Origin: a bacterium
Lineage (GTDB): Bacteria > Bacillota > Clostridia > Peptostreptococcales > Anaerovoracaceae
Assembly: GCA_963627215.1 (NCBI GenBank)
Contig: CAVGAH010000001.1
Span: 1-44,818, forward strand
Direction of reading: 5' to 3'
DNA length: 44,818 nucleotides
A model generated the notes under the pieces. It searched no databases. It was not told where the DNA came from and saw nothing but the letters and a program-made list of their open reading frames with translations. Position 1 is the stretch's first letter, and each line of letters opens with the position of its first letter. The position numbers and the translations under genes are program-made. Positions 31,522 to 40,560 of this stretch are shown piece after piece.

Positions 31522-33411
31522 TTAATTTCCGGTTTTTCTCTTGTTTTTAATATATTCGACCACTGCGTCTGCGGCGGATTCTTCTGTTATCATGCCGACT
31601 TTGCCGATTTTTCCGCTGTTCATGTTGGAATTATTGCATTTGGAGTTACTATCGGCAGTCTGCGCTGCATCGTCTATTGGCGATTCACTGTATTTTTTCA
31701 GCGCCCACATGAGCTCTCCGCCTGCCGGCAGACCGAGCCCTATATTCTTCAGCAGCATGGCATGACTGAATACCTCCGACGGAGTACCTTGAAGTACAAG
31801 CCTTCCGCCGTGCATTACAAGTATATTATCGCACAGACGAGCCACATCGTCCATATTATGTGATACGAGTACCACAGAACATCCGCGCTCGCTGCGTATC
31901 TTTTCTATCATTTCAAGTATCTCTCGGTGCGCCTGCGGATCAAGTCCGGCTGTCGGCTCATCGAGTATGAGTACCTCCGGCTTCATTGCTATCACGCCCG
32001 CGATGGCAGCTCTTCTTTTCTGACCGCCCGACAGCTCAAACGGCGAGCGCTGCCCGTATTTTTCGTACGGCAGACCGACGAGCTCGAGCGCTTCTTTTAC
32101 TGCGTTGTCGATCTCAGACTCAGTCATTCCGAGGTTTTTCGGACCGAACGCGACATCTTTTACAACTGTTTCTTCAAAAAGCTGGTATTCAGGGTACTGG
32201 AAAACTAATCCTGTTTTTTTCCTGACATCACGGTCCGGCGCAGGGTCTATAGTGCCGGATGTCGGCTTGAGCAAGCCGTTTAAGTGCTGTATAAGTGTTG
32301 ATTTTCCTGAACCCGTGTGGCCTATTATGCCTGTGAAGCTGCCCGGCTGTATAGTAAATGAAACGTCATCAAGCGCTTTTGTTTCGTCCGGGCGGCCCGG
32401 GTTGTAGGTGTGGGTCAGGTTTTTTACGGTTACGGCGTGGGGTGTTAGTCGGGATATGGGGGCTGCAGCGGGTGGGTGGGTGGGTGGTGTTACCGCTGCG
32501 GCTGCGTTTGATGCTGCAGGCTCCGGCTCTGCCGGCTGTGGGACGCCTTGAGGCGTCGTAAGCGCGTCAGCGCCCGAAAGCCATTCGGCGAGCGCATTTA
32601 TCGTAAGTATTCCTGCAGGCACTTCAACGCCGCGTTTTCTCAATAGTTCTGCCATCCGCACGGCTGCAGGCACCTCAAGCCCTGCGTCTTTTATTATATC
32701 TGTCCTCGCAAACACCTCTGCAGGCGTTCCATCTGCTGCAATGCAGCCCTCTTTCATTATTATTATCCTGTCAGCGGCGCTCGCTTCTTCCATAAAATGG
32801 GTTATTAAAATAACAGTTATTTCCTCTTTATGCAGCCGACCGATTATCTTCATAACGTCATCGCGCCCCTTTGGGTCGAGCATCGCCGTCGGCTCGTCAA
32901 ATATGATACATTCCGGCTTCATCGCAATAACGCCCGCGATAGCGACGCGCTGCTTCTGCCCGCCCGATAGCATGGACGGAGCTTTCATCCGCTGCTCGTA
33001 TATCCCGGCGCTCTTCATCGCCGCGTCTATGCGCGTCCTTATCTCATCAGACGGCACTCCCAGATTCTCCGGTCCAAACGCCACATCGTCCTCGACTATC
33101 GCAGCGACAATCTGATTGTCAGGATTCTGAAATACCATCCCCGCAGTCTTTCGTATATCCCACACGAGCATGTCATCCGCCGTGTCCATATCAGCCACGA
33201 GAACGCGTCCGCCGCTCGGAACGTAGAGAGCGTTGAAGTTCTTGGCAAGCGTCGATTTGCCCGAACCGTTACGCCCCAGAATAGCTGTAAACGAGCCTTT
33301 TTCTATTTCCATATTAACGCCCGCAAGGGCAGTGATATCCTCACCGCCCTCTTCAAAAGCTTCATATTTAAATGTCAGATCCTCCGCACGAATGATCGAA
33401 TTTAAATCCAA
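31522..33411 (-). CDS. ecfA: fused ECF transporter ATPase EcfA1-EcfA2 (two ABC domains in one polypeptide)
   Basis: Two full ABC cassettes: GRNGSGKST / LSGGQKQR / IIFDEPT and GHTGSGKST / LSGGQKRR / LILDEPT. They are joined by a Pro/Ala-rich linker. I chose the TTG start at 33411 (GGAGG 6 nt upstream) over the ATG at 33462. Confidence 0.9.
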   Translation of the reverse strand: MDLNSIIRAEDLTFKYEAFEEGGEDITALAGVNMEIEKGSFTAILGRNGSGKSTLAKNFNALYVPSGGRVLVADMDTADDMLVWDIRKTAGMVFQNPDNQIVAAIVEDDVAFGPENLGVPSDEIRTRIDAAMKSAGIYEQRMKAPSMLSGGQKQRVAIAGVIAMKPECIIFDEPTAMLDPKGRDDVMKIIGRLHKEEITVILITHFMEEASAADRIIIMKEGCIAADGTPAEVFARTDIIKDAGLEVPAAVRMAELLRKRGVEVPAGILTINALAEWLSGADALTTPQGVPQPAEPEPAASNAAAAVTPPTHPPAAAPISRLTPHAVTVKNLTHTYNPGRPDETKALDDVSFTIQPGSFTGIIGHTGSGKSTLIQHLNGLLKPTSGTIDPAPDRDVRKKTGLVFQYPEYQLFEETVVKDVAFGPKNLGMTESEIDNAVKEALELVGLPYEKYGQRSPFELSGGQKRRAAIAGVIAMKPEVLILDEPTAGLDPQAHREILEMIEKIRSERGCSVVLVSHNMDDVARLCDNILVMHGGRLVLQGTPSEVFSHAMLLKNIGLGLPAGGELMWALKKYSESPIDDAAQTADSNSKCNNSNMNSGKIGKVGMITEESAADAVVEYIKNKRKTGN

Positions 33412-33515
33412 TTTAGACCTCCAAATAATAATATCAAATATTACGCGCGTCACCGCGCCCATGGGCGAGCAGGCTCGCGTCGTTTATTAAAATCAAATAC
33501 TTAACTATTAAATTA

Positions 33516-33800
33516 TTATTTATTCTCGTTTTCATCGATCATCTTCTGCTGCAGCTCACGGCTCACGCGCATCACATGACCATAGAGATCTCGCGCATAA
33601 TCGCCGTACTTCGCTCCTGCGAGTGCCTGCACACGGTCGAGCACAGCTTCCTCTCTGTCCTGTCTGAGGACAGGCATGTTGTTTTCTATTTTATAAGCGG
33701 CGACCTGCTTCACGAGATCCATACGCTTGCAGAAGACTGATATCAGCTCTCTGTCAGTTTCATCTATCTTTTTTCTTATCTCTTCAAGGACGAGTGCCAT
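33516..33800 (-). CDS. chorismate mutase (AroQ type)
   Basis: 94 aa with the LEEIRKKIDETDRELISVFCKRMDLVKQVAAYK pattern of AroQ helical-bundle mutases. It lies 3 nt after the aroC stop. Confidence 0.9.
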   Translation of the reverse strand: MALVLEEIRKKIDETDRELISVFCKRMDLVKQVAAYKIENNMPVLRQDREEAVLDRVQALAGAKYGDYARDLYGHVMRVSRELQQKMIDENENK

Positions 33801-33803
33801 ATG

Positions 33804-34892
33804 CTATTTTCCCTCCTCAAGAAGCATGTCCATTATCACTATCGCTGTAACGGCTTCAACTACAGGCACAGCGCGCACCGCCACGCATGGATCGTGTCTG
33901 CCCTTTACACCCATTTCAGCGTCTCTAAGCTCTCTGTAATCTATACTTTTCTGCGGCTTGCCTATTGAAGGAGTCGGCTTGAACGCCAGTCTCGCGGTAA
34001 CAGGCATGCCTGATGTTATTCCTCCGAGAACGCCACCGTGATTGTTTGTATAAGTTTTTACAGTGCCGTCCTCCGCCATGTAAAATTCATCGTTATTTTC
34101 GCTGCCGCGCATGCTTGCGACATCAAAGCCTGCGCCGAACTCCACGCCCTTTACCGCGGGTATACCGTAAAATCCGTAAGCCAGACGGCCCTCAACAGTA
34201 TCGAATATAGGGCTTCCGACGCCTGCAGGCAGACCTGTAACAGCCACCTCGACCACGCCTCCCACAGAATCAGCGTCAAGCATTGCGGCTTCTATCACAT
34301 CTCTTATTTTCTGTTCTGAAGCGTCGTTTATCACAGGGAACGACTTTTTACCCGGAGCAAGCAGCTCTTCAGGCGTTATGTTCACGCCGTCAAAGCTGTC
34401 GTCGCTCGCGTCTCCTACAGAAAGCAGATGCGCGCCTATATATATGCCGCGCTTCGCGAGATACTGCAGGCACAGACCGCCCGCAAATACCAGCGGCGCT
34501 GTGAGCCTTGCCGAGAAATGACCGCCGCCGCGCACGTCGTTAAATCCGTTGTATCTTACAAATCCTGTATAATCAGCGTGTCCCGGTCTTGCGACTGACG
34601 CTACATTTTTATAGTCGCCGGAATGCTGATCGTTATTTGCGATTACTGCCGCTATAGGCGTGCCGCATGTCGTGTTTCCCAGTATGCCCGAAAGCACTGT
34701 AGGCAGATCGCTCTCCTTGCGGGGAGTTGCAGTCTTGTCTCTGCCCGGAGCGCGCCTTTTCATAAACGCGAGCAGCGCATCCGTGTCTATTTCGACTCCC
34801 GCGGGGAATCCGTCTATAACGGCTCCGATGCCGTTCCCGTGCGATTCGCCGAATATCGAAACCTTTAACTTATTACCTATCTGTGATGACAT
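33804..34892 (-). CDS. aroC: chorismate synthase
   Basis: Contains FGESHG and GRHDPCVAVRAVPV. I chose the ATG at 34892 (GGAGGA 7 nt upstream), which overlaps the aroA 3' end by 20 nt. Confidence 0.95.
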   Translation of the reverse strand: MSSQIGNKLKVSIFGESHGNGIGAVIDGFPAGVEIDTDALLAFMKRRAPGRDKTATPRKESDLPTVLSGILGNTTCGTPIAAVIANNDQHSGDYKNVASVARPGHADYTGFVRYNGFNDVRGGGHFSARLTAPLVFAGGLCLQYLAKRGIYIGAHLLSVGDASDDSFDGVNITPEELLAPGKKSFPVINDASEQKIRDVIEAAMLDADSVGGVVEVAVTGLPAGVGSPIFDTVEGRLAYGFYGIPAVKGVEFGAGFDVASMRGSENNDEFYMAEDGTVKTYTNNHGGVLGGITSGMPVTARLAFKPTPSIGKPQKSIDYRELRDAEMGVKGRHDPCVAVRAVPVVEAVTAIVIMDMLLEEGK

Positions 34893-36237
34893 CTGCGCGT
34901 CCTCCAAGTCTTCTGTATTCATCAAAGAAATCAGGATAGCTCTTTGACACAGCCTCCGCGCCTCTGATTATCAACGGTTCTTCGCATATGAGCGCTGCTA
35001 TCGCCATAGACATTACTATGCGGTGGTCGTTGTAACCGCTGACCTCGCAGCCGCCCTTCAGGCTTCCGCCCGTTACTATAAGCTCTTCTTCCTTTTCCTC
35101 AACTACAGCGCCGAGACGAGTCAGACAGTCAGCCATAGCAGCCAGCCTGTCGCTTTCCTTTATCCTCAGCCTGCCCGCGTCAAGGAACCTCGTAACGCCG
35201 TCCGACTTAGTCGCTGCAACAGACAGTATAGGAACTATATCAGGAATATCTCTGCTGTCAACGTCAACGCCGTGCATCGAGCTTCCGTTTATTTTAAATG
35301 AACATAATTTTTCATACTCGCCGCCTTCAGCAATATTTTTCTGAAGCTCCGAATACGAAATATCATCGCAGTCTACGACGGCTCCCGCCGTCCCAAGTAT
35401 CGCAGCAGCCTTTCTGTCGCCCTGCGCGCTGTCAGACCTCAGACCTGTTATCTTAAGGTCAGAGCCGCACGCTGCAGCAGCCATCCAGAACGCCGCGTTA
35501 GAGTAATCGCCCTCTACTTCTGCGTCTTCCGCTTTATATTTCTGACCGCCCGGCACGCGGAAACCGTGATCTGTTTCTTCTATTATTATACCGAAATCTC
35601 TTACCATCTGGAGCGTCAGCGCTATATAGCTCGCTGACTCAAGAGTTCCCGTTATATGTATCTCGCTGTCGCCGTCGAGCATCGGCAGCGAGAATATCAG
35701 CCCTGAGATGTACTGTGAGCTTATATTCCCCGGTATAGTATAAACTCCCGGCTGCATCTTTCCTTTTATTGTAAACGGCAGCGAGTCCTTACCGTCAGGC
35801 CCGAACTCTACGCCCTTTTTCTTCATTTCATCTGCGAGCGGCGTCATAGGACGTTCAGGCAGCTTTCCTCTGCCCGTAAAATCGCATGAAACGCCGAGTG
35901 CCGCGGCTACAGGAAGTATGAACCGCAGAGTAGACCCGCTTTCTATGCAGTCAAGCAGCGGTCTGTTTTCGCCGTCCTGACCCGGATCCTGCGTTTTTGC
36001 TCGACCTCCAACGCCTGTTATCCTTACGTCGCGGCCTCCCTCAAGGCGCTCTATGACAGCGCCGAGCGCCTGCATGCATCCTATAGTCGCTTCCATGTCC
36101 TTTGAGCCCGATATGCCCTTTATAACGGAAGTTCCGTCCGAGAGCGCCGCGCATATAAGCGCTCTGTGCGCCATTGATTTAGAAGGCGGGGCCTTCACAA
36201 CGCCTGTCAGCTTTCCCGGCCATACTTTTACGTCCAT
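34873..36237 (-). CDS. aroA: 3-phosphoshikimate 1-carboxyvinyltransferase (EPSP synthase)
   Basis: 454 aa with PPSKSMAHRALI, KESDRLAAM and NDHRIVMSMAIA motifs. Confidence 0.96.
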   Translation of the reverse strand: MDVKVWPGKLTGVVKAPPSKSMAHRALICAALSDGTSVIKGISGSKDMEATIGCMQALGAVIERLEGGRDVRITGVGGRAKTQDPGQDGENRPLLDCIESGSTLRFILPVAAALGVSCDFTGRGKLPERPMTPLADEMKKKGVEFGPDGKDSLPFTIKGKMQPGVYTIPGNISSQYISGLIFSLPMLDGDSEIHITGTLESASYIALTLQMVRDFGIIIEETDHGFRVPGGQKYKAEDAEVEGDYSNAAFWMAAAACGSDLKITGLRSDSAQGDRKAAAILGTAGAVVDCDDISYSELQKNIAEGGEYEKLCSFKINGSSMHGVDVDSRDIPDIVPILSVAATKSDGVTRFLDAGRLRIKESDRLAAMADCLTRLGAVVEEKEEELIVTGGSLKGGCEVSGYNDHRIVMSMAIAALICEEPLIIRGAEAVSKSYPDFFDEYRRLGGRADVITDR

Positions 36238-36307
36238 TTATATTACCTCTTAATATTTCATAACCTCATATTGTATTCTGCATACGATACTTTAACGCTT
36301 TTATCCA

Positions 36308-37360
36308 TTATCGCATAATATCATACAGTTTTTCAAGGCTTACATCAAATGTATCTGCCAGACCGATCTCAGGAATGTACACAAGGCTTATGCTGCCGCC
36401 GCCTGCTTTTTTGTCTGAGGCTGCGAGCCTGCACAGCTCGTCGAGCGGAGCACCATATTCAGTGGCGAAGCCTTTTGACTTTATTACATTATAAAGCGCG
36501 TCATAAGTACCCGCCGCTGTCTTTCCCATACGCTCAAACGCCTTTGTTATCATGAGCATTCCGATCGCTACCGCCTTTCCGTGGCTTATGCCGAAATCAG
36601 AATACTTTTCGATGGCGTGAGCCATCGTATGTCCGAAATTCAGTATTTTGCGCAGTCCGGCTTCCTTTTCGTCAGCATCGACTACTTCGCCCTTTATCTG
36701 AACGCATCCTTCGACTATCTCCTCTGCCATAGCCATGATATCGCCGTCAGTAGCTTTTTGGAAAAGCGCAGCGTCGCGTATCGCGCCTGTTTTAAGTATC
36801 TCAGCTGTGCCGTCGAGTACCTGATCGTTTCCGAGAGTTGCAAACGTATCTGTATCGCACAGTACGAGCGACGGCTGCCAGAACGCTCCCACAAGATTCT
36901 TTCCCGCGTCTATGTCTACACCGGTTTTTCCCCCTACAGACGAGTCAACAGCAGCGAGCAGGCTCGTAGGGATCTGAACGAATTCTATTCCTCGCAAATA
37001 AACGGAAGCTGCAAATCCTCCCATATCTCCGGCGACCCCGCCGCCCAACGTGATGACCGCATCCCTTCTCGACAGATGATGCTCCGCCATAAAGTCTATA
37101 AATGAAGCAACTGTACTGAGATTTTTTGATCCTTCACCTGCGGGAAAAACGTATCTGTATGTTTTGAAGCCCGCGTCAGCCAGCTGTTTTTCTACTTTGT
37201 CTCCGTAAAGAGCGTTTACCGATGAATCCGTAAATAGTGCTACATTGTATGCGCGGAGCACCTCACGGATGCGTGCTCCCGCCTCAGAAAGCAGACTGCT
37301 TCCTATAACTACATCATATCCCTTACCGCCGTTTCCGGCGTTTATGTGTACATTTTTCAT
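36308..37360 (-). CDS. aroB: 3-dehydroquinate synthase
   Basis: 350 aa with GGGVAGDMGGFAA and the metal-binding GHTMAHAIE motif. Confidence 0.95.
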   Translation of the reverse strand: MKNVHINAGNGGKGYDVVIGSSLLSEAGARIREVLRAYNVALFTDSSVNALYGDKVEKQLADAGFKTYRYVFPAGEGSKNLSTVASFIDFMAEHHLSRRDAVITLGGGVAGDMGGFAASVYLRGIEFVQIPTSLLAAVDSSVGGKTGVDIDAGKNLVGAFWQPSLVLCDTDTFATLGNDQVLDGTAEILKTGAIRDAALFQKATDGDIMAMAEEIVEGCVQIKGEVVDADEKEAGLRKILNFGHTMAHAIEKYSDFGISHGKAVAIGMLMITKAFERMGKTAAGTYDALYNVIKSKGFATEYGAPLDELCRLAASDKKAGGGSISLVYIPEIGLADTFDVSLEKLYDIMR

Positions 37361-37411
37361 AGCTTTAAATTTCCCTGTAATTTTATGTAAATCATTTTAT
37401 TTTCTTAGACT

Positions 37412-37463
37412 ACCTGAAAACAGATAAAATTAATGGAGCTGCCGATATACAAGACAGCTCCAT
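37412..37463 (-). terminator. hairpin plus U-rich tract between aroF and aroB (partial terminator or processing site)
   Basis: 9-bp stem ATGGAGCTG(37433-37441)/CAGCTCCAT(37455-37463). The minus strand continues UAAUUUUAUCUGUUUUC. Confidence 0.45.
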
Positions 37464-37486
37464 GGTCCTATTACTATTTCAATTGT

Positions 37487-38500
37487 TTAGTTCATTTCTG
37501 TTTCCATGAAACGTCTGATCTTCTTGATTTTTTTCATTGTATTATCAAACTGTTCCGGTGTCAATGACTGCGGACCGTCGCAGAGAGCTTTTGCCGGATT
37601 GTTGTGAACTTCAATGATCAGACCGTCTGCGCCTGCAGCTACCGCTGCGATAGAAAGCGGCTCAACGTACTGTACAACGCCTGTAGCGTGGCTTGGGTCA
37701 ACGATTACAGGGAGGTGAGTCTTTTCCTTGAGTACAGGGATAGCCGAAAGATCGAGAGTGTTTCTCGTAGCAGTTTCAAATGTTCTTATACCCCTCTCGC
37801 AGAGGATAACGTTCTTATTGCCGCCTGCCATGATGTACTCAGCGCTCATGAGCCATTCTTCTATAGTGTTTGCAAGGCCGCGCTTAAGGAGCACAGGCTT
37901 GTCCTGCTTACCGAGCACCTTGAGGAGCTCGAAATTCTGCATGTTTCTCGCGCCTACCTGGATAACGTCTACATGGTCGAAGAACGGAAGATGAGCTGCG
38001 CTCATGATCTCAGTAACGATAGGCATGCCTGTAGCTTTCTTTGCCTTGAGAAGGAGTTCGATGCCCTCTGCTCTGAGGCCCTGGAATGCGTAAGGCGAAG
38101 TTCTTGGCTTGAAAGCGCCGCCGCGCATCATAGTAGCGCCTGACTTTTGTACAGCCTTGGCTACCTCTACCATCTGTTCTTCTGATTCAACTGAGCAAGG
38201 TCCTGCTATTACCTGGAAATTGCCGCCGCCTATCTTTATGCCATTAACGTCTACTACTGTAGGTTCCGGATGGAATTTCTTGTTTGCTGCCTTGTAAGGC
38301 TCCTGTATCCTCTTTACGTCCTCAACGAACGGGAATGAGAGTACCGCGTCCTGATCTACAGAAGTCGTATCGCCTACGAGACCGAGGATAGTCGTGTGCT
38401 CGCCCTTTGTAACTGAAACTGAAACGTTGTACGCATCGAGGTATTCTACGATATCCACGAGATTGCTTTCACTTGTTCCGTCCTTTAAGATAACTACCAT
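37487..38500 (-). CDS. aroF: 3-deoxy-7-phosphoheptulonate (DAHP) synthase, type I-beta, with N-terminal regulatory domain
   Basis: 337 aa with GPCSVES, KPRTSPY and VDPSHATG motifs. The extra N-terminal domain of about 70 aa is a ferredoxin-like domain, as in allosterically regulated I-beta DAHPS. Confidence 0.93.
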
Positions 38501-38570
38501 TTGTTTTTCCTCCTGAGTTTACATAATTTATGTCGTGTTCTAAATCAATAACTTATTAATGAATACCATC

Positions 38571-38636
38571 GTATGAATGCATCCGCCGGGCGGATAAATC
38601 ACTGCGATGCGGCGTCCCGGACGCCGATATTCATAC
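38571..38636 (-). promoter_or_regulatory. structured aroF leader segment: an 8-bp helix enclosing two 15-nt GC-rich palindromes
   Basis: GTATGAAT(38571-38578) pairs with ATTCATAC(38629-38636). Inside are ATCCGCC-G-GGCGGAT (38581-38595) and GGCGTCC-C-GGACGCC (38611-38625), each with perfect 7-nt arms. Confidence 0.45.
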
Positions 38637-38646
38637 ATTTACGGTT

Positions 38647-38680
38647 AAAAAAATCGCCATCCGGCTGACCGAATAGCGAT
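38647..38680 (-). terminator. strong intrinsic terminator (candidate attenuator) between the small aromatic-rich ORF and aroF
   Basis: Minus strand: AUCGCUAUUCGG-UCAG-CCGGAUGGCGAU (12 bp, two G-U pairs) followed directly by a U-run. Confidence 0.8.
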
Positions 38681-38714
38681 GATATTTTTCAATGAATTTA
38701 TCTTCTGATGCTCC

Positions 38715-38864
38715 TTACGCTGTCGTCGATTCGGTAAGCTTATATTCTTTTTTAAGTGAACGCCAAAAATAGCCTGCAAAGTAAGTAAACAGACCTGTAA
38801 AGCTACCAAAATAAAAATAAAAGCTGTTTGAATCAAAAATTGAAAGTGAAGTTAACGATCTCAT
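38715..38864 (-). CDS. 49-codon aromatic-rich small ORF: candidate aro-operon leader peptide (alternative: small membrane protein)
   Basis: GGAGGA lies 7 nt before the ATG. The product is MRSLTSLSIFDSNSFYFYFGSFTGLFTYFAGYFWRSLKKEYKLTESTTA, with 8 Phe (all TTT), 5 Tyr and 1 Trp. It is not in the supplied ORF track because it is under 60 aa. Confidence 0.55.
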   Translation of the reverse strand: MRSLTSLSIFDSNSFYFYFGSFTGLFTYFAGYFWRSLKKEYKLTESTTA

Positions 38865-38924
38865 CGTTGCATCCTCCGATAATTTGCTGCCTGCCTCGTT
38901 AAAGCATGGCTAACTGTTAGGAAC

Positions 38925-38953
38925 AATATACTCCTGTCTGCAGGTATTGTCAA
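38925..38953 (-). promoter_or_regulatory. near-consensus sigma-A promoter driving the small ORF / aro leader
   Basis: On the minus strand: TTGACA (38953-38948), 17-nt spacer, TATATT (38930-38925). Confidence 0.7.
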
Positions 38954-39023
38954 CCATGTTTTTTAAGTTAATTATTTCACAGTATCACCATAACGCATAC
39001 ACGCATAGCTGTAGTAAAGTATT

Positions 39024-39701
39024 TTACAGTAACTCTATGCCCGGCCACTGGTCGTATGTATCGAGGAACAGACGACACAGTGGTTTTATTTTTTCACTGT
39101 CATCCGCTGAGTTTTCGTCATATACTCCGATAAGCTGGTAGCCTGCTGCTGAAGCGGTTTCTGAGGCGTGTAGCACATCCTCGAAAACGAGCGTTTCATC
39201 GGGAGAAGTCCCAAAGTATTCTGCTGCTTCGTTGTATATGTCGGGCTTGCGTTTGTTTGCTCCTACCTCCATGCATGTAAAGACCTTTTCAAAATATTTA
39301 TTGAGACCGAGTCTTTCGTTGCCTGCTTCTATCATTTCTCTGGCTGACGCTGTCGCTACACACATTCTTACGCCATGCGCCTTTAAGTCATCGAGTACAT
39401 CGAGGACGCCCGGCTTGAGCTGAAGTGTTTTTCTGTACTGGTCTGTGACTGTCCGGAGCACCGCCTGAACTATCTCGTCGTCTGTTCCGGGTGCGCCGTA
39501 CTCATCGCGGAATATTTTTGCACCTTCTTCGAGCGACATCGTTTTTATTACATAGTCAAGGTCAGGCGCAGGCTCTTTGCCGAGTACTGTTCTTACGTAA
39601 TCGCTTGAAGCTCTGCTCCACATACCCATAGAGTCCATAACCGTACCATCGTAATCGAATATCGCGGCTTTTATCTTCGTTTTATCTATATTTTTTCCCA
39701 T
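39024..39701 (-). CDS. HAD-IA family hydrolase (phosphatase / beta-phosphoglucomutase-like)
   Basis: 225 aa with motif I IFDYDGTVMDS, motif II VATAS and a C-terminal FEDVLHA motif. Confidence 0.85.
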   Translation of the reverse strand: MGKNIDKTKIKAAIFDYDGTVMDSMGMWSRASSDYVRTVLGKEPAPDLDYVIKTMSLEEGAKIFRDEYGAPGTDDEIVQAVLRTVTDQYRKTLQLKPGVLDVLDDLKAHGVRMCVATASAREMIEAGNERLGLNKYFEKVFTCMEVGANKRKPDIYNEAAEYFGTSPDETLVFEDVLHASETASAAGYQLIGVYDENSADDSEKIKPLCRLFLDTYDQWPGIELL

Positions 39702-39768
39702 ATTTTCCTTTTTTATTACTTATTTAATATCAGATTCTAAACTGTTTTACACTATTCAAAATATTCTA

Positions 39769-40560
39769 TCATATGAAGATAACTGCCGCCAGTGCTATAA
39801 ACGGCGCCATAGGTATGAAGCTTTCATTTGTAAGGCGTTTTGCCGCGAGTCCCGCCGTTATAAATAATGCGCTGCTGATCACGGCTACAGTGAACATCAT
39901 GACTGCTTTTTCGGGAGCGCCGGCGAGTGCTCCGCACACGAGCATCATTTTTATATCTCCTGCGCCTATAGCGCCCGCGCCGTAAAATACTGATGAAAGT
40001 ACAGCCGACAGGAGCATAAGGCCGCCGCCCGTCAATGCTCCCATGGCGACGCCGGTAAGCCCCGCGGCCGCAGCGTCGGCCCATCCCCGCCAAAAGCCGA
40101 CGCTGCCGCCTGTCAAATGCGCGCGCCCCATTAAAAATCCCTCAAGGCCGCCCGCATCTACGACCCCATGCGCGCATGCTCCCGCAAGCGCGCAGCCGGC
40201 CGCTGCCCACATCAGCTGATCCGGTATGATCATATAGTCCATATCACTAAAGGCAGCCGCCGCCAGAAAAACGCCCGCCGCCCCGCCCCAAACAGAAACG
40301 CCGCCCGCTATAAAAATATAAAGCGCAGCCAAAAACACAGCAAGCGCCTTAACCGCACGTTCAGGCGCGCCTCCGGCGCCCCTGAACCCCGCCATATGCA
40401 GCTCGCAAGGCGCTTCATCAAACTCGCAGAGCCAGCGCGCGGGCAGCGCCATATAAAGCCCGCGCGCAGACGCGCTGACGATAGCCGCCCCGACCACCGC
40501 CGCTGCAAAACGCGCCGCATCAACATTTTCTGCAATACCCGCATAAAAGCTCAAAAACAT
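39769..40560 (-). CDS. A24-family prepilin peptidase (no N-methyltransferase domain)
   Basis: 263 aa polytopic protein with the two catalytic Asp contexts SDMDYMIIPD and GAGDIKMM. It is visibly more GC/Ala/Gly-rich than its neighbours. Confidence 0.75.
   Translation of the reverse strand: MFLSFYAGIAENVDAARFAAAVVGAAIVSASARGLYMALPARWLCEFDEAPCELHMAGFRGAGGAPERAVKALAVFLAALYIFIAGGVSVWGGAAGVFLAAAAFSDMDYMIIPDQLMWAAAGCALAGACAHGVVDAGGLEGFLMGRAHLTGGSVGFWRGWADAAAAGLTGVAMGALTGGGLMLLSAVLSSVFYGAGAIGAGDIKMMLVCGALAGAPEKAVMMFTVAVISSALFITAGLAAKRLTNESFIPMAPFIALAAVIFI

Follow-up and report, generated by a model that had tools for sequence, protein, structure and literature searches.

A putative Phe/Tyr-responsive transcription attenuator upstream of the aroF operon in a Clostridial contig, and related leaders at orthologous loci

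Leader-peptide attenuation is a textbook mode of gene control in Proteobacteria and is regarded as rare in Firmicutes, where T-boxes, TRAP and riboswitches dominate. In the pheL-pheA (Rfam Phe_leader), pheM-pheST and trpL systems of Escherichia coli, the sensing codons lie in region 1 of the leader transcript, a 2:3 pairing forms the antiterminator and a 3:4 pairing the terminator, and the position of the stop codon lets a terminating ribosome mask region 2. Here we describe an element of similar layout in a Clostridial contig (CAVGAH010000001.1, positions 1 to 44,818; this whole stretch of 44,818 nucleotides (nt) is called the window below), where a short open reading frame (ORF) rich in phenylalanine (Phe) and tyrosine (Tyr) codons precedes aroF and further genes of the aromatic pathway on the minus strand.

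The closest described systems concern the same gene. In Corynebacterium glutamicum, an aroR leader peptide with the residues Phe-Tyr-Phe, which had been predicted earlier (Mentz et al. 2013, PMC4046766), precedes aroF, and stalling on it raises transcription of the aroF operon, an effect seen only with Phe limitation, as far as the work is summarised in a later article (Neshat et al. 2014, via PMC11802643). The predicted upstream ORF (uORF) uORFC-13-1 is confined to sites upstream of aroF and counts 24 representatives, from Acholeplasma and from environmental sequences without assignment (Brewer et al. 2021, PMC8632094), and its described features are a promoter, a ribosome-binding site (RBS), a start codon, a U-run encoding Phe and an adjoining intrinsic terminator (PMC8632094). 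Upstream of hisS/hisZ paralogues in Bacillus, a 'regular' His leader has been reported as the first in Firmicutes (Naville & Gautheret 2010, PMC2965389). An initial inspection of the window by sequence alone (the sequence-only reading below) had held leader-peptide control to be uncommon for the common aromatic pathway, a view that is qualified by the precedents of C. glutamicum aroR and the predicted Acholeplasma uORFC-13-1. For Clostridia, our literature search found no report of an aroF leader peptide.

The leader and the proposed switch

We propose, with a probability of roughly 85%, that the window encodes a ribosome-mediated transcription attenuator that would sense the charging of Phe- and Tyr-tRNA and govern aroF-aroB-aroA-aroC-chorismate mutase. 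All of the sequence elements of such a device are present, they are conserved and covary across orthologous loci, and no rival family matches them. The elements of the window are as follows, all on the minus strand.

38925..38953, minus strand: sigma-70-type promoter, TTGACA (38953-38948), 17-nt spacer, TATATT (38930-38925); 11/12 positions match
38872..38877, minus strand: Shine-Dalgarno sequence GGAGGA, 7 nt 5' of the leader ATG (38864), read from the sequence
38715..38864, minus strand: leader ORF of 49 codons plus stop (stop codon 38717-38715), with 8 Phe, 5 Tyr and 1 tryptophan (Trp) codon by translation
38806..38836, minus strand: region 1 by local folding, codons 10-20 (with S-F-Y-F-Y-F among them), which supply the 5' strand of the 1:2 anti-antiterminator helix
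38771..38795, minus strand: central in-ORF hairpin GGUCUGU...GCAGGCU, then AUUUUUGG; -7.6 kcal/mol
38723..38759, minus strand: region 2, codons 36-47; pairs with region 1 through 38759-38726 and with the terminator 5' arm through 38735-38723
38668..38680, minus strand: region 3 by local folding, the terminator 5' arm, common to antiterminator and terminator
38646..38664, minus strand: region 4 by local folding, the terminator 3' arm (38664-38653) and the U7 tract (38652-38646)
38646..38680, minus strand: terminator ATCGCTATTCGG-TCAG-CCGGATGGCGAT (38680-38653) followed by T7 (38652-38646); 12 pairs, -17.0 kcal/mol

The promoter, the Shine-Dalgarno sequence, the 49-codon ORF and the 12-bp terminator with its U-run are all confirmed at the positions where the sequence-only reading had placed them. 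The promoter is the top promoter-like site within 33000-40000 and is dedicated to the leader, being placed between it and an upstream gene that Pfam assigns to the HAD hydrolases. The product of the leader ORF is MRSLTSLSIFDSNSFYFYFGSFTGLFTYFAGYFWRSLKKEYKLTESTTA, in which 13 of the 25 codons from 10 to 34 are aromatic (8 Phe, 4 Tyr and 1 Trp), among them the consecutive run F15-Y16-F17-Y18-F19, with a further Tyr at codon 41. All eight Phe codons are UUU, compared with 44% of the Phe codons in the long ORFs of the window, a uniformity that would arise by chance with a probability of about 0.0015 (0.44^8). The terminator begins 34 nt past the leader stop and is the highest-ranked terminator-like match.

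Local folding of the window leader yields the classical four-region layout, in which nucleotides 38735-38726 within region 2 (ACCGAAUCGACGA) are used by both the 1:2 and the 2:3 pairing, so that the two are mutually exclusive. The folding brought to light the 1:2 anti-antiterminator, which was absent from the sequence-only reading and is statistically the stronger helix of the two: the 1:2 segment folds at -26.4 kcal/mol, and its duplex (-17.3 kcal/mol) is equalled by 0.35% of dinucleotide shuffles. The 2:3 antiterminator comprises 11 pairs at -11.4 to -11.9 kcal/mol, with ACCGAAU (38735-38729) pairing with AUUCGGU, and the distance from its upstream strand to the end of the stop codon is 7-20 nt. 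A supplementary AGCG:CGCU pairing that had been suggested alongside it is not kept in either of two close relatives (L081 and L082). We regard the exact pairing scheme given here for the window as somewhat likely.

We infer from this arrangement leader translation, ribosome stalling, a kinetic choice of structure and a physiological response, in the following manner. Transcription would start from the promoter at 38953-38925, and a ribosome would load onto the 49-codon leader ORF. With Phe- and Tyr-tRNA well charged, the ribosome would reach the stop at 38717-38715 and cover or unwind region 2 (38759-38723), leaving region 3 to pair with region 4, and the resulting 12-bp terminator and U7 would release RNA polymerase before aroF; were the leader left untranslated, region 1 would sequester region 2 and termination would likewise follow. 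Under a shortage of charged Phe- or Tyr-tRNA, the ribosome would come to a halt at the aromatic codons, chiefly codons 15-19 within region 1; region 2 would then be free to pair with the emerging region 3, the terminator would be blocked and the operon transcribed.

Leaders, terminators and antiterminators at orthologous aroF loci

For comparison, 80 loci (loci are given L numbers here) were fetched, each with a close AroF relative (63-84% identity to the window AroF), from metagenome-assembled genomes (MAGs) and isolates of Oscillospiraceae, Ruminococcaceae, Acutalibacteraceae, Christensenellaceae, 'Ca. Fimenecus' and a few Treponema; 76 of them have sufficient sequence upstream of aroF to be counted. 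A leader ORF was scored when it started with ATG on the sense strand no more than 350 nt upstream of aroF and held a 10-residue stretch with at least 7 Phe, Tyr or Trp residues, and the controls were the antisense strand of the same regions and all remaining tiles of 350 nt, on either strand, from these loci (n=2318). Such ORFs are present at 45/76 loci, as against 0/76 on the antisense strand and 1/2318 control tiles. A slight relaxation of the aromatic threshold raises the number of qualifying loci to 52, with 47 distinct peptides and 53 leaders when the window is counted, and several loci beyond these 52 have weaker, evidently homologous ORFs. At L034 and L046 another coding region directly precedes aroF, and any leader would sit further upstream. 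Cultured strains among the carriers include Ligaoa zhengdingensis NSJ-31 (L008), Angelakisella massiliensis Marseille-P3217 (L053) and Acutalibacteraceae SVS042 (L076).

The relative peptides, of which MKRNIFAAEYFYFYFINKS, MKKIFNFYFYAYYFMKPYF, MLCKTNATAYEFFYFYFYFAEK and MANLFFAAEYYYYYLYSYNFE are examples, are 18-60 residues long, with the Phe/Tyr run as their sole common feature. This run is always in frame with the ATG, the frame staying open until a stop at or beside region 2, and an SD-like tetramer lies 5' of the start in 46/52 of the ORFs. Both Phe (2-8 residues) and Tyr (2-7 residues) occur in 47/47 distinct leader peptides, and the Tyr codons are divided between TAT and TAC (98/105), which points to selection on the amino acid and not on the nucleotide. 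Trp is found in only 3/47 of the distinct leaders; Trp sensing is for this reason doubtful, and of the Phe/Tyr/Trp attenuator first suggested for the window we retain the Phe and Tyr components.

By a strict rule, a clean closed hairpin with a T-run lies 11-53 nt past the leader stop in 41/53 leaders, including that of the window; these terminators are mostly situated 18-60 nt before the aroF ATG, and additional ones are evident by eye, for example in L002, L001, L016 and L043. Short aromatic-rich ORFs followed by terminators, with the peptide otherwise unconserved, are what the sequence-only reading had recommended looking for upstream of orthologous aroF genes, and the outcome of this comparison is strongly positive.

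The 41 leaders with a terminator were also folded in a stalled state, with a ribosome placed at the last aromatic codon and the fold confined to the RNA between its 3' edge and the terminator loop. In these folds 74% of the terminator 5' arm is paired, and the mean energy is -16.8 kcal/mol, compared with -11.0 kcal/mol when the upstream part is shuffled (mean z -2.4, with 29/41 below -1.5); moving the ribosome to the stop codon reduces this to -4.0 kcal/mol in the same family folds. The antiterminator has its 5' strand either within the final 5-40 nt of the ORF or 1-12 nt past the stop, a position at which a terminating ribosome would mask it.

Covariation is seen in the Christensenellaceae-type leaders, whose region 2 (UAUCGGUUAUUU) begins 3-7 nt past the stop and practically duplicates region 4. 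Here a U-A pair has become A-U (L044) and an A-U pair G-C (L051), in both 2:3 and 4:3, which amounts to a three-way covariation; it should be noted that MAFFT placed region 3 wrongly in three of these sequences and that an anchored manual register was used instead. A cross-locus permutation of upstream segments against terminator arms was weakly positive (own arms 0.47, foreign arms 0.36 of perfect-duplex energy), this test being blurred by motifs common to related loci and missing antiterminators that reach into the loop.

A recurrent motif pair was also observed in the 3' parts of the leaders, where UUUUGCUGY, often encoding Phe-Cys-Cys or lying just past the stop, pairs with RCAGUGAAA in the terminator 5' arm and loop (L011, L021, L027, L029, L033, L039, L042, L045, L054, L056, L064, L068, L072 and L080). 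This pairing explains the conserved 'FCC' and 'CFTAEK' C-termini as a constraint acting at the RNA level.

Among the nearest relatives of the window leader, the promoter is identical in L081 and the GGAGGA is unchanged in L081 and L082. Of the upstream sequence, one and the same ORF segment pairs best with the terminator arm in the window, L081 and L082 (-11.9 to -12.2 kcal/mol), and it does so again in L002 (-15.7 kcal/mol). L002 differs from the window in its C-terminal peptide (LTESTTA vs SGSESRHHSNQ) though the region 2 RNA is kept, and retention of this RNA without conservation of the peptide argues for a role of the RNA. The terminator of L001 shows compensatory changes. A metagenome scan with the degenerate back-translated core returned one contig only, nearly identical to L082. 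The window leader is an unusually long member, collinear with the peptides of L003, L008, L016, L043 and L049 in a common pattern (an FYF run, G/S-S-F/L-T/S, aromatics, (S)AG(Y/F)F and W/C), and the nucleotide block GCR-GGY-TWT-TTT-TGS-YGY is also common to these six.

Both arms of the central hairpin (38771-38795) are nucleotide-invariant in the window, L081, L082, L002 and L001, and the adjacent codons vary. The hairpin may cause RNA polymerase to pause and so keep ribosome and polymerase in step, a role that may make the conserved peptide motif 'GL...(A/T)GYF' a by-product. More speculatively, the window-type variant could act as a multi-checkpoint sensor with graded integration of Phe, Tyr and Trp charging, an idea that derives from its 49 codons, its 14 dispersed aromatic codons, the conserved in-ORF hairpin and U-run, and the single conserved Trp codon.

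Phe/Tyr-rich leaders before aroF were also encountered in two spirochaete MAGs, at approximately 2820-2969 in L059 (Treponemataceae) and approximately -166..-82 relative to aroF in L032 (Treponema), with the peptides MTFTAYYNTFYFYSFYYFTNSRG and ...GNFYYSAYYYYSYYATGKGSK, respectively. Their AroF proteins are 65-67% identical to the Clostridial ones, which suggests either a joint horizontal transfer of aroF and the attenuator or contaminated bins.

Points of doubt and rival explanations

Several observations weigh against a Phe/Tyr attenuator in the window. The ACCGAAU:AUUCGGU pairing pointed out by the sequence-only reading does exist; taken alone, however, the 2:3 complementarity (-11.9 kcal/mol) is not significant, 16% of dinucleotide shuffles being as good, and the stalled-state fold of the window shows no gain in stability (-19.8 vs -22.6 +/- 3.4 kcal/mol when shuffled). 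Equilibrium folds in which a ribosome footprint of 29 nt was masked at 10-15 codon positions, with or without the terminator 3' arm, keep the terminator at every masked position, and with the full 5' untranslated region included and region 4 left out, the antiterminator is not the minimum-energy structure at any ribosome position. As the terminator survives all equilibrium folds, the switch can only be kinetic and co-transcriptional, as holds for all attenuators of the class, and local folds 3' of the ribosome are the only ones that display it.

Furthermore, eight aromatic codons (22-34 and 41) are placed between regions 1 and 2 or beyond them, and a stall there might or might not disturb the 1:2 helix; a ribosome stalled at codons 22-34 should sterically hinder 1:2 and leave region 2 free. 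The window-type variant is known in four copies only (the window, L081, L082/L083 and L002), and the changes among them are compatible with pairing (A to G giving G-U, U to C giving G-C) and not doubly compensatory. Finally, about a quarter of the orthologous loci are without a leader, and no known alternative element, including those of Rfam, was found upstream of aroF there; the loci with neither a Phe/Tyr leader ORF nor an Rfam element are L005, L013, L015, L022, L023, L025, L026, L028, L030, L035, L038, L048, L055, L060, L065, L067 and L079.

That the equilibrium folds always retain the terminator is what one would expect of a translation-coupled attenuator that is unspecific for the amino acid and follows the global rate of translation, or of a leaky insulator after the HAD gene. 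The weakness of the window antiterminator relative to the terminator (-11.4 vs -17.0 kcal/mol) fits such a device, and the ferredoxin-like N-terminal domain of AroF could give feedback control by itself, an allosteric role of this domain being established for Thermotoga-type DAHP synthases. An unspecific sensor would not, however, need both Phe and Tyr in every one of the distinct leaders at one gene, and it leaves their enrichment upstream of aroF over the control tiles unexplained; the promoter dedicated to the leader also speaks against this reading. We consider both versions improbable.

It is also conceivable that the RNA senses its ligand without translation, in the manner of a T-box, a riboswitch or a site for a TRAP- or PyrR-like protein, the ORF being a by-product of U-rich sequence. 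T-box and TRAP control is common for the aromatic genes of Firmicutes, the whole window leader folds better than its shuffles (z -3.55), and close relatives are strongly conserved at the nucleotide level. Nevertheless, the Phe/Tyr run keeps to the frame of an ATG that is mostly preceded by an SD-like tetramer, its stop falls at or beside region 2, its Tyr codons vary synonymously, and ORFs of this kind are missing from the antisense strand and nearly so from the other tiles. Rfam searches at gathering score and at E<=10, run on the window, on 40 related loci and on two typical leaders, gave only tRNAs and unrelated matches at chance level, with no T-box or other Rfam family in the leader regions, and a sensor that bypasses translation is accordingly very unlikely. 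T-boxes, the known leader families (Phe_leader, Leu_phe_leader, Trp_leader and His_leader) and riboswitches were each rejected as assignments for want of an Rfam covariance-model match.

The remaining alternative, already raised by the sequence-only reading, is that the ORF encodes a true small protein, hydrophobic or with a single membrane span, that has a terminator of its own and lies before aroF incidentally; a hydrophobic aromatic core followed by RSLKK, identical in both homologue clusters of the peptide (P0001 and P0002), would suit it, yet we reject it as scarcely credible, since a search of 5.8 billion proteins (E<=10) returned these two clusters only, both between a HAD hydrolase gene and aroF in synteny with the window and none at loci unrelated to aro genes, neither the window peptide nor six other family peptides belong to a Pfam or NCBIfam family, the orthologous ORFs have only the Phe/Tyr run in common, the conserved core is invariant at synonymous sites too and coincides with the RNA helices, and L002 retains the region 2 RNA beneath a different peptide.

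Operon context, significance and relation to described systems

The gene order read from the sequence downstream of the terminator was borne out by Pfam.

37487..38500, minus strand: aroF, DAHP synthase with N-terminal ferredoxin-like domain, the first gene of the presumed regulated operon
36308-37360, minus strand: aroB, DHQ synthase (3-dehydroquinate synthase)
34873-36237, minus strand: aroA, EPSP synthase
33804-34925, minus strand: aroC, chorismate synthase
33516-33800, minus strand: chorismate mutase, type II

As the operon includes chorismate mutase, which stands at the Phe/Tyr branch point, a logic of Phe and Tyr sensing would fit it. In L081 the aroF RBS comes almost directly after the terminator, which leaves no space for a downstream promoter, so that every aroF transcript must traverse the attenuator there; the promoter scan found no promoter-like site between the window terminator and aroF, and together with the L081 layout this means that aroF transcription has to cross the attenuator.

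In the window, some 120 nt that contain two GC-rich hairpins (GGCGUCCGGGACGCC and AUCCGCCCGGCGGAU) separate the terminator from the aroF RBS (38520-38640, minus strand). This insert occurs in altered form in L082 and L083, is wholly absent from L081, is present in the window as a single copy by a repeat test and has a fold z-score of -1.46; it could represent an insertion, act as a stabiliser or add a second layer of control. A 63-codon TTG-start ORF in another frame (38645-38836, minus strand) overlaps the leader ORF and the terminator, and nothing marks it as a gene. The ORF called for chorismate synthase (33804-34925, minus strand) also starts with TTG and shares about 50 nt with the end of the ORF for EPSP synthase (34873-36237, minus strand); the Pfam match of the former starts at residue 20, and the real aroC start therefore probably lies further downstream.

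Of the sampled genomes of Oscillospiraceae, Acutalibacteraceae, Ruminococcaceae and Christensenellaceae, well over half have a Phe/Tyr leader at the entry to the aromatic pathway, and no Rfam, Pfam or NCBIfam model covers it. The window element thus appears to be a divergent member of a broad, uncurated and apparently undescribed Clostridial family. If the family were catalogued, gene callers could cease to label the leader ORFs as hypothetical proteins, gut metatranscriptomes would gain a marker of Phe/Tyr limitation, and compact, sequence-diverse Phe/Tyr-responsive parts would become available. A larger view, to which we assign an even chance, is that the window holds one divergent copy of a large uncatalogued family of aroF-linked Phe/Tyr attenuators that would serve as the main transcriptional control of the shikimate pathway across the gut anaerobes of the Oscillospirales and Christensenellales, in place of the T-box and TRAP of Bacilli, and that would have travelled with aroF into Treponema MAGs, with the Acholeplasma uORFC-13-1 maybe a branch of it.

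The mechanism that we propose for the window is of the textbook type represented by trpL, pheL and hisL, and precedents exist on the same gene. With pheL, pheM and trpL the window shares the four-region layout and a region 2 that the stop codon allows to be masked; these systems differ in belonging to Proteobacteria, in controlling terminal-branch or tRNA-synthetase genes, and in having Phe-only or Trp-only runs within ORFs of 14-15 codons. The Leu/Phe leader of Lactococcus (Rfam) and the His leader of Bacillus demonstrate that leader-peptide attenuation exists in Firmicutes and can replace T-boxes, although they concern other genes, other amino acids and other taxa (Bacilli) and their models have no match in the window.

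Closer still are the two aroF systems. As in C. glutamicum aroR, the gene that would be regulated in the window encodes DAHP synthase, the proposed Phe/Tyr logic and class of mechanism agree, and Phe and Tyr codons are consecutive; unlike the window leader, with its 13 aromatic codons over 25, aroR has a three-residue F-Y-F and belongs to another phylum, the Actinobacteria, a distance from which an independent origin of the two appears likely. The comparison with uORFC-13-1 is by description only: both have a promoter, an RBS, a start codon, a U-run encoding Phe and a terminator with aroF next, and where uORFC-13-1 is described as coding for 'at least one' Phe, the window leader offers an alternating run of Phe and Tyr.

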